Positions 1 to 20,000 of a DNA stretch of 20,000 nucleotides are shown piece by piece. The notes under the pieces are model-generated. The model saw only the letters and a list, made by a program, of their open reading frames with translations, did not search any database and was not told where the DNA came from. This DNA is from Atractiella rhizophila. Lineage: Eukaryota. Position 1 is the first letter of the stretch. Each line of letters starts with the position of its first letter. Position numbers and translations under genes: made by a program. The stretch covers positions 47,198 through 67,197 of the forward strand of contig MU271424.1 in the NCBI GenBank assembly GCA_021432655.1, given 5' to 3'.

Positions 1-46
1 CGAGAAGGCGTTGGACCTACAGTAGCTCCCAGATAACAGAGCTTAG

Positions 47-7591: not shown

Positions 7592-10383
7592 TTACTTTTT
7601 CGATCCTCCAGCCCTAAACTTCTTGTAGTCTTCCATCATTTCCTTCTGCACTGATGCCATCACAGGATCGTGTTTCAGGTATTCCATTGTGAACTCTCCC
7701 TTTCCTTGCGTCTGACCCCTCAGAAAAGCGGAATCTAAAATTTAATCGTCAATATGCAATGTAAAAGGCACAGGCAAGGGACGCACAACCAAACATATCG
7801 TTCAAGCTCACTTCAGCGGTTAGAGTGAACTCGTCCTCCCCAATCTCTGTGTCTAAAATGTTTCCTCTTCTGGAGTTGATACCGCCAATTACATCACCTA
7901 TCAATGATGGAAAGTTAATATGTTAAACTTGTGTGAGGGGAAAAAGCACGCACCCTGGAACTCGATTGGCGCGATAACCTCTACGCGCATGATTGGTTCA
8001 AGGATGACGGGACTGGCCTGATTGTAGACTTCACGGAATGCACCAGCAGCGGCAGCACGGAAAGCCCATTCTGAAGAATCCACGATATGATGGAGACCGT
8101 CTTGCATCACCATTCGACACATCGTCACGGGGTATCCAGCGAGACCTCCGCGGGTAAGGGCGTCTTGGAATCCCTGTTGTCCGCTCAGACAGGCCTGAAG
8201 GAGATATTAACCTTTTCACATCCAGGTATGTATTCGAAAGGAATGTTGCCAGATGTGACATGATTCCAGAACTCGTGGTCCTTATCATCCACCCTCTCTT
8301 CTAGAGGTTCGATTCGTCCAATGACCCTTGCGAATTGTCCTCTTCCACCAGTCTGCTTCTTATGGGTATAATTGAACTCTGCCGCCTCCGTGATCGCCTC
8401 CTTATAGGCGACCCTGGGACGTCCAGAGACAGTTTCGACGTTATATTCTCGCTTCATCCGCTCGATATAGATCTCGAGATGCAGCTCACCCATTCCGCTG
8501 ATAATCGTCTCTTGACTATCGGGATCGACGTGGACGCGGAAAGTTGGGTCTTCGCGCTGGAAGCGCTGCAGGGCTTTGCTGAAATGAGGTGTTTCTTGGC
8601 CCCTTGGCCGGATGGCTAGGGAAACGACGGGGTCGGGGACAAACATCGAGCTCTGTGGGATGCATGCGTCTCTCGTTAACGGGTTCTGCATGAAAGAAGG
8701 GGAAGTAGAGACGAACCATGGTCAGCTCACTCCCGTTGCTAGCTGTTGTAAGGGTATCTCCAGACGCGCACTCAACGCCAAAGATTGCCGCAATCTCTCC
8801 AGCACCAACCTGATCTACTTCCTCCATCTCTTCACTATGCATTCTCACCAACTTTGGAACCTTGGTCTTTTTCCCAGTCCTCACGTTTACCACAATCGTG
8901 CCCTTGGTCAACACACCCTGATATATCCTCACGTAAGTGAGTTGTCCAAACCGGGACTCTTCCAATTTGAACGCCAATGCAAGAAGAGGCCCAGTGGCGG
9001 TGGGAACGAGAGGGACAGAAACGCTAGTTTGTTGCGGCTTCGGGACTGTGAGTGCGTTTGACGAGACTTCGTAAGGAGCAGGAAGGTAAGAACAGACTCC
9101 GTCAAGGAGCGGTTGGACAGCCAAATTAGATAGCGCTGATCCCATGAAGACTGGTGTGAACCGACGAGAGATGGTAGCGCGTCGAATGGCCGACTGTTCA
9201 CAACATCAAAACATCACAAATGCTCGCCGACGAAAATGGGAACGAACAGCAAGATCCTCGTTAGTTATTGGTTCTTCGGCAATGAATTTATCTCCCAATT
9301 CCTCGTCTGCATCAGCAACGCACTCGACGAGCTCCGCTCGATATTTATCCACCGTCTCCTTCAGGTTTTCTGGAATTTCCTCACTTCTCAGTAGCTCAAT
9401 CCTATTCGAGAAGCAAATCCAGTCAGCTTAAAGAAATAAAAAGTAACGAACGACAAACCCCTTGGTCCCTCCGTTTCTGTAACACACGCCCCAAACCAAA
9501 TCCACCACTCCTTCAAACGTGTCTTCACTCCCAATTGGCACCTGTGCGAGCGCTGCATTCAGCTTAAGTTTGTTCCGTAGCTGTCCAAGGACTTTGAAGG
9601 GATTTGCGCCAGGCCTACATTCCGAAGCAACCGGGCCCATAAGTATGCTTGGAAGTGAAGAAGGGAACAGGACTCACCGATCCATTTTGTTGACGAAACA
9701 TAACCGTGGAATATCATATCGCTTCATTTGGCGGTCAACGGTGATTGTTTGACTTTGAACTCCAGATACGGCGCAGAGCACGAGTACTGCGCCATCCAAG
9801 ACTCGAAGAGCTCGTTCGACCTCAATCGTGAAGTCGACGTGGCCTATTCGCGCACTTCGTCAGCACTCAGGTTTTGAACGGAACTCGAATGAAATGTACC
9901 AGGAGTGTCAATGATATTGAACCAATGTTTGTTACCCTTCACCCCGTCCACCTTTGCGCCATCTCCCTTGATATCCCATTCGCAAAAAGTCGCCGCCGAC
10001 TTAATGGTGATACCTTTCTCCCTCTCCAACTCCATGCTATCCATCTTCGCTCCTACTTCATCCTTCCCCCTCACCTCATGAATTGAAGCTATCCTTCCAG
10101 TATAATAAAGCACACGCTCTGTCAAAGTTGTCTTTCCAGAGTCGATATGTGCACTAATACCCAAATTCCGTAAAGGAGCGAGACGCGCATAGTCTGCCGT
10201 ATTTAGACTACGCTCTGTCAAAGTTGTCTTTCCAGAGTCGATATGTGCACTAATACCCAAATTCCGTAAAGGAGCGAGACGCGCATAGTCTGCCGTATTT
10301 AGACTGAGCGTGGATGGTGCGGAAGTCGAGGCATAGCGCCGAAAGGACTGCCCTAAACGGGGGAGCAGGCGTAGGGGCAGCAT
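7592..10383 (-). CDS. MEF1: Mitochondrial translation elongation factor G1, 783 aa as sequenced (751 without the duplication); exons 10383-9900, 9843-9678, 9614-9459, 9401-9248, 9193-8717, 8652-8212, 8173-7954, 7897-7787, 7734-7592
   Basis: Arg/Leu/Ser-rich presequence; G1 [74 protein letters not shown]. Exons total 2352 nt in frame. Confidence 0.96.
10114..10305. repeat. Perfect tandem duplication, 2 x 96 bp (10114-10209 and 10210-10305), inside MEF1 exon 1
   Basis: The two copies are identical base for base. The protein shows [32 protein letters not shown] twice. Confidence 0.97.
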
Positions 10384-17876: not shown

Positions 17877-20000
17877 TCAGCGCCTCTTCTCCCTCTTAGC
17901 TCTTCCACCAGGAGCAGCACCTTTGCGATCAGCCTGCCGCCGATTTTTTGTATCCACTTGATCGTAAAAGTTGGTAGCCTTTTTCTTGCTTGTCTTCATC
18001 CTCTTCTCCTTTGTAAGCTTTGAATCAGGCTCGTCGTCATCGAAGTCGGCAGCTATTCCAACAGCGATTCACGTTCAGCGACCTAAAGAACTGAAGACTA
18101 AAGAGACCTACCTCGTTTCTTCCCTTTCGGCGGTACCTGGGCCTTCATTGATGCCTGCGCAGCTTTCGATCCAACTTTGGATTTTGGCTTGGATTTGGAA
18201 GATTCGGCTGGTGGAGGGGTATTGACGAAGATTTCAACCGACTGTTCGCTCTCTTCATCCCAGCCATCTAAATCTTCATCGCCATCCTCATCCTCATCAG
18301 CGTCCTCGTCCTCGTCCTCGACAGCATGCATGAGGCGTTCCACTTTGCTACTGATAGACTTCGTCGGCGATGTGCGACCATTGTTCATAAGGTCATCCCA
18401 ATCGATCTCCTCTTCATCACCCTCTTCCTCTATCTCGTCTTCCTGCTCAGCGACAGCGGATGTATCTTCCGCCTCCTCTTCATCGCCCTCATCTTCCTCC
18501 AGGAAACGGCCCTTCTCTCGCACCACCTGGTGTAGTGGTTGAGCAACTGCTTTAAGCCTACCAACCTCCACTTCAGGGTTCTTCGCGGTATTCTTCTCCT
18601 TTTTCTTCTCTGTCACCTTTCTACCAGCATCTTCTTCTCAGTACCGTCTTGCCCTTTCGATTCTGTCTCAGGGGGACGCTCAAAATACGGAATCCTCCCC
18701 CGTATCCAGTCGTTGAGCACCATGATGGAGGTTGTTCTCAAATCTGCTTCTCCACCCTTCAACAAGCGACCGCTCTTCCGTGAGAGTACGTCAAGAAAAT
18801 CCTCGGAGTCCCGTCCCACTTCCATGCATCGTGGAGACCGTAAGTTCGCCGAATGTAGTCAGGTTTAACCCGTGCGAGAAGGGGAGCAATGTGATCTTGT
18901 GGAGAGGACAAATGTTCGACTCGGACGACGCCTTTCAACACCTTCTGTGCTTCGGTATCGCGAGCGGAAGCAGGAACGATACCAGGACAGTCGATGAGGT
19001 AGATACGGCGCATGAGAGTAATATATTGCCACACCTGCTCAGAAGCGTAACTCATCAGTATGTAGGATGCTGTCGAGTGTAAATCACTGACTTTCGTCTC
19101 TCCGGGAATTGGCGCAACATTGCACACCTTCTTTTTCTTCAAAGTATTGATAATACTCGACTTCCCGACATTAGGATATCCGAAAAATCCCACAGAGATC
19201 TGTTTTTTGTCGTTGAAAAGAGTGGAGAATTGGCGGAGGAGCGATATGAGGGAACCTTTCCCAAATGAGTTGTTGATGGATGCGTGGAAGGCGATGGTCG
19301 GATTGAACTGAGAAAGGTATTTGACCCATCGCGCCTATGTCAGTTTTCAACTATGTGTTAGTATTGTCATTGTGAGGACTTGAAATAATTATGTGCGAGT
19401 ATTAACTAAGAAGTGCGGCACGTCTTTCCCTTTTTAAGAGGAAATCGACTAGCCTGTCTTTCAACTGCAAGTCCGAACTTCTACTCTTTTAAAACTTTCG
19501 ATCTTCCACAAACGTAACGGTCATTCCCTCATGTTGTCCCTTGATAGGGTTAGGAGGACCTGACTTGTTGTGGTGCAAGGAATGCCTTGAAAAATGATGA
19601 AAAAGACTCACAGCTACCCAACCAGGGACCAGATCGATCTTATTGAGTACCCAAACAAGCTTCTTCCCACGCTTTTCCTTCGCCAAATATTTCTCAATGT
19701 GCTCGCAGCGAGTACCCAAAGGATCTCTCGCATCCAGGACATTGATCAAGACATCGGAAGAATCAATGACCTATTCGTCTCGTCTCTCAGCTTTGACGAC
19801 CACAGAGGACACAAACTCACCTTGTACAATTCCCCCCAAATCCTCTTCGACGTTCCTGCGCTGAGAATGTAATCCGGATTCACATCGTTTAACTGCATTT
19901 CCTCCTCCACGCCCTCCACGGCATCCACGGGCTGGGCTTCTGCTGGTCCATCAATTGCAACCTTCGAACTGCTTGCCACTGGCTCAGCCGCCGTTTTCGC
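17877..20000 (-). CDS. NOG2: Nucleolar GTP-binding protein 2 (circularly permuted GTPase, pre-60S assembly), 5' end beyond the window; introns 19820-19771, 19611-19335, 19091-19035, 18111-18053; two apparent 1-nt deletions
   Basis: [91 protein letters not shown], an acidic tract and basic C-terminus [11 protein letters not shown] at 17879-17877. Confidence 0.95.
19389..19575 (-). ncRNA. snR191: Intronic box H/ACA snoRNA, snR191/U19 (SNORA74)-like guide for LSU rRNA helix 69 pseudouridines
   Basis: Two hairpins. Pocket 1 is AGUCA (19565-19561) / GUUAC (19518-19514) around stem GGUC/GACC. Pocket 2 is AGAGU (19487-19483) / UAGUUA (19408-19403) around stem AGAAGU/ACUUCU. The ACA box (19394-19392) lies 14 nt from pocket 2. 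The host is the NOG2 intron, as in yeast. Confidence 0.88.

Follow-up and report, generated by a model that had tools for sequence, protein, structure and literature searches.

A probable compact snR191/U19 orthologue in a NOG2 intron of the fungus Atractiella rhizophila

The stretch of DNA analysed here (the window) comprises 20,000 nucleotides (nt) of contig MU271424.1 of Atractiella rhizophila (assembly GCA_021432655.1, positions 47,198 to 67,197 of the forward strand) and carries, on its minus strand, the gene NOG2, one intron of which is 277 nt long. An earlier reading of the same DNA, made from the letters without database searches (the sequence-only reading), had proposed that this intron conceals a box H/ACA small nucleolar RNA (snoRNA) resembling yeast snR191 and vertebrate U19 and directed at helix 69 of the large-subunit ribosomal RNA (rRNA). 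The follow-up reported here upholds that identity: the intron very probably encodes an orthologue of snR191 and U19 (SNORA74), a box H/ACA guide RNA, as judged from a match to the full Rfam model of snR191, from the host gene and from orthologous introns with the same RNA in nine other NOG2 loci.

NOG2 and its long intron

Judging from its sequence, the host gene is NOG2, as had been proposed. When the 81-residue exon downstream of the intron, extended into the exon that follows, is compared with solved yeast pre-60S structures, it matches Nog2 with an E-value of 2e-59, and its first residue aligns with residue 271 of the yeast protein. Human and Chaetomium Nog2 come next among the structure matches, and the paralogous GTPases Lsg1, Nug1 and GNL3 are far weaker. 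In Pfam the exon matches MMR_HSR1 (3.4e-13). Its identity with P0001, an NCBI protein under the name Atractiella rhizophila, is 100%, in agreement with the description of the source as basidiomycete-like in the sequence-only reading; the lineage of this fungus is Basidiomycota, Pucciniomycotina, Atractiellomycetes. The P0001 entry itself (251 amino acids; gene at window positions 18762-19898, minus strand) is a truncated model that starts at an internal methionine and is without the N-terminal NGP1NT domain. Its C-terminal end is a read-through of the next intron, where the partial model P0051 continues with other residues instead.

The intron is genuinely spliced out. Exactly its 277 bases are skipped by one contig of sequencing run X20 (depth 145.7) and by one contig of the metatranscriptome run X3, the ends of the skip reading CT..AC on the plus strand and hence GT..AG on the minus strand, and P0001 reads across the junction (slash) as ...VPGWVA/ARWVKY.... 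The intron ends in ..ACATAG, the last base being 19335, and the TACTAAC motif lies 31 nt past the predicted 3' end of the snoRNA and 23 nt ahead of the 3' splice site (Table 1). The two adjacent introns measure about 50 and 57 nt in the gene model of P0001, or 52 and 54 nt by hand reading, so that, in a comparison confined to this gene, the intron is about five times the length of its neighbours. Its extent had been described correctly, as had, within this gene, its unusual size.

All four sequencing runs that cover the locus (X20, X1, X2 and X3) are represented by contigs, and X1 and X2 are only guessed to be RNA. Alongside its spliced contig, X20 contains one that retains the intron (19309-19614, depth 21.6). 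X1 contributes a 258-nt contig confined to the intron (19339-19596), and X2 one of 151 nt that stays within the predicted snoRNA (19395-19546) and differs by five substitutions and one deletion. The exon bins adjoining the X1 and X2 contigs are uncovered, cover resumes within about 50-110 bases, and the uncovered parts carry no evidence. Taken together, the near-identical contigs of X20, X1 and X2 show eight differences inside the snoRNA, none of which falls in the four guide motifs or the ACA box and one of which (19500) falls in the H box. At position 19442 the window has A where X20, X1 and X2 all have T, and at the RNA level this would replace U by A in the 3' hairpin's apical stem; the window's allele looks like the minority one.

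Table 1. Positions of the NOG2 exons, the intron and the parts of the predicted snoRNA within the window.
Feature	Position	Strand	Basis
NOG2 exon upstream of the intron	19612..19767	-	exact mapping of residues 28-79 of public protein P0001; listing of open reading frames
Spliceosomal intron of NOG2, 277 nt, snoRNA host	19335..19611	-	skipped by X20 and X3 contigs; P0001 splices across; sequence read
5' splice site GTGAGT	19606..19611	-	direct read; contig joint
Putative branch site TACTAAC	19357..19363	-	read directly; role assigned from the fungal consensus
NOG2 exon downstream of the intron, 81 amino acids, G1/P-loop region	19092..19334	-	PDB Nog2 match; Pfam; identity with P0001
Predicted mature box H/ACA snoRNA, about 185-188 nt, probable snR191/U19 orthologue	19389..19576	-	ends predicted; Rfam snR191 match at 19391-19575
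5' hairpin: lower stem CCACAA/UUGUGG, pocket 1, upper stem GGUC/GACC and inner stems	19506..19573	-	unconstrained and constrained folds; covariation
Pocket 1, 5' guide AGUCA (predicted to pair UGACU of helix 69)	19561..19565	-	alignment; motif shared with the Rfam consensus
Pocket 1, 3' guide GUUAC (predicted to pair GUAAC of helix 69)	19514..19518	-	alignment; 14 nt to the H box
H box AGAUCG	19499..19504	-	direct read
3' hairpin: lower stem AGU-UUAA/UUAA-ACU, pocket 2, upper stem AGAAGU/ACUUCU, long apical part	19398..19496	-	constrained fold; covariation
Pocket 2, 5' guide AGAGU (predicted to pair ACUCU of helix 69)	19483..19487	-	alignment
Pocket 2, 3' guide UAGUUA (predicted to pair UAACUA of helix 69)	19403..19408	-	alignment; 14 nt to the ACA box
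ACA box	19392..19394	-	identical in all ten sequences; counterpart of the ACA in the Rfam model

Architecture of the predicted snoRNA

A relaxed Rfam scan of the 451 nt between positions 19250 and 19700 returned snR191 (RF01263) on the minus strand, extending over model positions 1-273 with 29.4 bits and an E-value of 5.9e-5. This was the sole significant match in the scanned region. Matches of SscA, sR17 and DUF805b within the intron had E-values of 0.23-4.8 and were taken as chance. Vertebrate U19/SNORA74 (RF00090) belongs to the same clan as snR191 (CL00043), and Rfam lists only the best match per clan; the window scores higher with snR191 than with SNORA74. No tRNA genes were found in the 20-kilobase window.

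The intron RNA has the box H/ACA layout of hairpin, hinge, hairpin and tail, with a lower stem, a pocket and an upper stem in each hairpin, as seen in folds and in the covariation described below. In the 5' hairpin, CCACAA (19573-19568) pairs with UUGUGG (19511-19506) and GGUC (19560-19557) with GACC (19522-19519), and in the 3' hairpin the upper stem is formed by AGAAGU (19482-19477) and ACUUCU (19414-19409). All of these stems had been pointed out in the sequence-only reading, and all recur in the folds. The first hairpin is recovered by an unconstrained fold, and both hairpins are canonical when the guides are held open. In the constrained fold the ACA box follows the first base of the pocket 2 3' guide by 14 nt, as had been stated, and an H box, which that reading had not named, likewise stands 14 nt from the first base of the pocket 1 3' guide, both distances being within the usual spacing of about 14-16 nt between a target uridine and its box. 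The predicted 3' end lies at 19389, three bases past ACA. Directly 5' of the lower stem of the snoRNA there is a further small hairpin, CAAGG-CAUU-CCUUG (19576-19589, minus strand), which may be a marker or shield of the 5' processing end or may be due to chance.

The two pockets are complementary to the loop of the helix 69 sequence given in the sequence-only reading. By hand reading, pocket 1 pairs with it over 5+5 bases around the equivalent of yeast U2258 and pocket 2 over 5+4 to 5+6 bases around the equivalent of U2260, each leaving its uridine exposed; the additional A of AGAGU extends, rather than shortens, this pairing. By homology with other guide RNAs of this class, the snoRNA would be transcribed within the NOG2 precursor messenger RNA (pre-mRNA), and its two hairpins would be bound by the H/ACA proteins Cbf5, Nhp2, Nop10 and Gar1. 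Splicing and debranching would be followed by exonuclease trimming to the protein-protected core, from about 19576 to 19389. The two strands of each pocket would then pair with 25S helix 69 on both sides of one uridine, which, held 14 nt from the H or ACA box, would be converted to pseudouridine by Cbf5, with pocket 1 serving the U2258 equivalent and pocket 2 the U2260 equivalent. In yeast, snR191 resides in the intron of NOG2 (PMC8476143) and directs the formation of pseudouridines 2258 and 2260 of helix 69 (PMC8476143; bioRxiv 10.1101/2024.02.02.578723), and ribosome dynamics are reported to change when these pseudouridines are lost (bioRxiv 10.1101/2024.02.02.578723).

The RNA could also be made and have changed its job, guiding one site only or other targets, or the intron could act mainly as a stable intron or as a regulator of NOG2. 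Lineage-specific targets of hairpin 2 have indeed been predicted for snR191: in the relevant part of one survey, the yeast target is predicted only in Saccharomycotina and Taphrina, and U6-85 is predicted in Pezizomycotina (PMC5824354). The yeast NOG2 intron, moreover, is described in part of another study as a stable intron under stress, and its removal as lowering fitness independently of Nog2 levels (PMC10667330). However, both pockets of the Atractiella RNA have the yeast consensus cores (GUCA/GUUAC and GAGU/UAGU) at canonical spacing, and the extra A of AGAGU lengthens the pairing with helix 69, so a change of function appears very improbable.

Orthologous introns and structural conservation

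A scan of metagenome contigs with the exon peptide yielded 80 NOG2 loci, 72 of them with both flanking exons. At the junction in question, 43 of the 72 have no gap, 15 have a gap of 28-106 nt, and 14 have one of at least 200 nt at or near it. An snR191-like RNA is found in eight of the 14 long-gap loci (L002, L004, L005, L006, L008, L041, L045 and L056), in each case directly upstream of the ...WVK exon and at the junction ...WVA/A.WVK... seen in the window, which places the Atractiella intron at a conserved fungal position of NOG2. In a ninth locus (L011) the RNA lies directly upstream of the same exon, the upstream exon being off the contig. An snR191-like RNA was not found in the other six long-gap loci (L024, L025, L026, L060, L071 and L072); the long intron lies a few codons further upstream in L024, L026, L060 and L071, L025 is like L024, and L072 is unclear. 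Three of these loci, which come from other eukaryotes and have their intron a few codons upstream, before ...VPAWV..., carry a box C/D snoRNA resembling plant snoR117 (L026:1256-1345, L024:1049-1163 and L060:999-1085, with 36.9, 27.6 and 26.9 bits, respectively, against a gathering score of 42). Neighbouring NOG2 introns thus appear to host different snoRNAs in different lineages.

Rfam was run on 17 of the loci. The snR191 model scored above its gathering threshold in L005 (63.6 bits), L056 (63.4) and L004 (53.7) and below it in L041 (42.6), L008 (39.2) and L045 (34.5). L006 matched SNORA74 best, with 27.6 bits, and L002 had no Rfam match at an E-value of 1 or better, though its motifs and fold are present.

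The window and the nine loci formed an alignment set of ten sequences, in which the 5' and 3' domains were aligned separately (alignments A2 and A3); a full-length MAFFT alignment (A1) was dropped, having set the 3' hairpin of the window against the central domain of the orthologues. The guide elements are conserved throughout the orthologous introns. In pocket 1, AGUCA is present in eight of ten sequences (L006 has UGUCA and L011 GAGCA) and GUCA in nine, and the 3' guide has GUUA in all ten and the final C in nine. In pocket 2, GAGU and UAGU are invariant (10/10), the leading A of the 5' guide being unique to the window, where the orthologues have U or C; the ACA box is equally invariant. The H boxes of the orthologues read AGANNR or AUAUGA and end in G in three of nine (L002, L041 and L056). 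As a separate observation, the deviating GAGCA of L011 (L011:185-263), in which the 3' guide GUUAC is kept, may mean that the first pocket is weakened there, or it may stem from misalignment in the 5' part of the contig.

When the guides are kept open, each of the ten sequences adopts the order lower stem, pocket, upper stem, and 19 of the 20 hairpins show a spacing of 14 nt between 3' guide and box. Both upper stems also emerge from an unguided RNAalifold run, which shows two-sided changes at 6 of 7 and 8 of 9 base pairs, respectively, and in the upper stem of the 3' hairpin 91% of cells are paired. For the 5' domain, 74.7% of cells are paired against 58.6% in shuffled alignments, with covariation of 0.523 against 0.232; the corresponding values for the 3' domain are 76.7% against 59.8% and 0.491 against 0.200. 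None of 500 shuffles reached these values in either domain, though the ten sequences are akin (L004 and L005 are nearly identical), so that the shuffle controls overstate the support, and the structure under test was derived from the same ten sequences. Sliding the structures by 1-3 columns lowered the covariation score to 0.10-0.22, and re-alignment to covariance models gave the same picture. MAFFT puts the lower stems of the window 1-2 columns off register, and the pairing counts for its row are therefore understated.

Besides the kinship of the aligned sequences, several points weigh against the assignment. The sequence-only reading had named the Rfam snR191 model as a check; the model does match with a significant E-value, yet its 29.4 bits stay below the RF01263 gathering score of 46, which is a curated cut-off and not a biological property, and a scan of the whole window at gathering thresholds gave no match at all. 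Two models built from the alignments, R1 and R2, match the window by construction, the window being in their training sets. The final G of the H box AGAUCG stands where the consensus ANANNA has A, and the canonical 3' hairpin is missing from the unconstrained fold. In pocket 2, no more than three to four bases of the 3' guide are free as long as the lower stem stays closed at its top; the longer pairing requires it to open there because the last three bases of UAGUUA also belong to the lower stem. The helix 69 sequence against which the pockets were read is the one given in the sequence-only reading, and pairing with the rRNA of A. rhizophila is a prediction. The intron contigs of X20 and X1, which reach beyond the predicted snoRNA, may be pre-mRNA, lariat or DNA. 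Finally, judged by free energy, neither the RNA (z -0.65) nor the intron (z -0.28) folds better than shuffled sequences do, which is no surprise in RNAs whose internal loops are large but lends the assignment no support.

The last result would fit a merely long intron that looks like a guide RNA by chance, as would the fact that the motif patterns were written after the sequence had been seen: AGTCA..GTTAC..AGAGT occurs once in the window against 0.03 expected, with five of 200 shuffles matching, and AGAGT..TAGTTA..ACA occurs once against none in 200 shuffles (0.00 expected), both counts applying to patterns composed post hoc. A chance resemblance is nevertheless extremely improbable, given that the Rfam match is full-length, that the RNA sits in the very gene and at the very intron position where the family resides, and that the same RNA, with covarying stems, is present in nine other NOG2 loci.

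Distribution and the missing central domain

The snoRNA has an uneven distribution among the metagenome loci, whose affiliations are given as the best named NOG2 among 120 proteins. It is kept in the Kwoniella-like L002 and in L004, L005, L006 and L008, for which the nearest named NOG2 is that of Basidiobolus, at 50-62% identity. In contrast, L001, with 89.6% identity to Rhodotorula glutinis NOG2, has introns elsewhere in the gene and none at this junction (L001:1339-2682), and L015-L019 have only introns of 51-59 nt here (around 1442-1500), Rhizoctonia NOG2 being best or second best in the three of the five that were tested. Beyond their ten training sequences, R1 and R2 found no snR191-like RNA in the other 71 sources, L001 and L015-L019 among them, within fetched flanks of up to 1500 bases on each side. 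The link between host and snoRNA is thus widespread and repeatedly broken, also inside Pucciniomycotina. The conserved host-snoRNA pairing put forward in the sequence-only reading accordingly holds for the nine metagenome loci and is not universal in Basidiomycota.

Nor is the pairing new. The occurrence of the NOG2/snR191 arrangement in fungi, including basidiomycetes, has already been published, and what is new or little-noticed is this copy, whose one unusual feature is that it lacks a central domain. In the parts of PMC8476143 that bear on the arrangement, the position of the NOG2 intron with its H/ACA snoRNA is reported as kept in 72% of fungal species, and as conserved, with an H/ACA snoRNA inside, in eight intron-poor fungi including four basidiomycetes. 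The figure concerned (Lim et al. 2021, Fig. 7) covers Ustilago, Malassezia, Pseudozyma, Meira, Candida, Sporothrix and Cyphellophora and, as far as that part of the article goes, presents the same host gene, RNA class and conserved intron position as the window. Its four basidiomycetes are Ustilaginomycotina, whereas the fungus of the window is an Atractiellomycete, within Pucciniomycotina. Losses and relocations have been documented in Saccharomycetaceae (PMC4202332), and the position of the yeast intron is not stated in the available part of bioRxiv 10.1101/2022.02.02.478905. In passages of the 2018 fungal survey, snR191 is designated HACA_42, its hairpin 1 is conserved at least in Dikarya, several Pucciniomycotina seem to be without most H/ACA snoRNAs, and 'Atractiellales sp' is among the species discussed (PMC5824354). 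A literature search for Atractiella together with snoRNA turned up this survey alone, and the Atractiella copy, which the sequence-only reading had called probably unannotated, may already be present in the per-species tables of PMC8476143 or PMC5824354.

The RNA of the window shares with snR191 of S. cerevisiae and other fungi (RF01263; HACA_42) the host intron in NOG2, the H and ACA boxes, and the GUCA/GUUAC and GAGU/UAGU motifs that the Rfam consensus has in the 5' and 3' pockets. It differs in length, about 185 nt against 273 model positions, and in the absence of the branched central domain. In all nine orthologues this domain takes up 51-103 nt between the H box and the 3' hairpin; the window has about 2 nt there. 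In the Rfam model this domain consists of a closing stem around two hairpins with CGUUUUG-like loops, and the loci have one or two such hairpins. It is kept also in the Tremellomycete-like locus and in loci whose nearest named NOG2 is non-Dikarya. The CGUUUUG-like motif was not found in the intron of the window, and within the 20-kilobase window CGTYTTGG occurs once, at 8161, against 1.48 occurrences expected by chance. The copy of the window is thus a compact two-hairpin form of snR191, and its low Rfam score is explained by the central region, where 2 bases answer to 103 positions of the consensus. The apical part of its 3' hairpin, in turn, is longer, with 45 bases against 20 model positions. 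Among the orthologues themselves, the loop CCGUYUUGG is strongly conserved (L002:1266-1368, L005:1315-1366, L041:1191-1267, L056:1276-1356 and others), and it is present in the Rfam consensus as well. Vertebrate U19, described as the counterpart of snR191 in guiding both helix 69 pseudouridines, is likewise an H/ACA RNA with two hairpins, about 200 nt long, and is not known to have the fungal central domain.

The missing domain could be part of a decay. The intron would then hold a relic in which snR191 remains recognizable although its production or its guiding has ceased, the work being done by another copy elsewhere or by a stand-alone enzyme. The Rfam score below the gathering threshold, the absent central domain and the imperfect H box all agree with such a relic, as does the occurrence of loss in this phylum, where L015-L019 have lost the snoRNA and L001 has lost the intron. 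However, the copy has kept intact its four guide motifs and four stems as well as the two boxes with their 14-nt spacings, and an H box ending in G is common to three of the nine orthologues. The contig differences, all eight of which miss the guides and the ACA box, lend weak support in the same direction, one of them being the H box change at 19500. A decaying relic is, on this evidence, very improbable.

A functional snR191 orthologue, the reading that we favour, may in Atractiella be a naturally minimized one, although we put the likelihood of this somewhat short of even. The central domain would have been cleanly deleted in this lineage with the helix 69 pockets left intact; it would be dispensable for both pseudouridines and would have a separate function that was lost or moved elsewhere, and compact copies of this kind would be missed by Rfam thresholds. 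If so, the 'loss' of H/ACA snoRNAs reported for Pucciniomycotina may stem in part from such thresholds. The published absences in this subphylum call in any case for caution before they are read as true losses: annotation at the curated Rfam threshold misses the Atractiella RNA unless NOG2-intron synteny or lineage-specific models are used.

The arrangement of snR191 within NOG2 already serves as a textbook-style illustration of what makes intron-poor fungi keep particular introns. The present finding adds an early-branching class of Pucciniomycotina to the fungi in which a probable helix 69 guide resides inside the gene of a pre-60S GTPase, and its missing central domain provides a natural deletion mutant for a conserved part of snR191.

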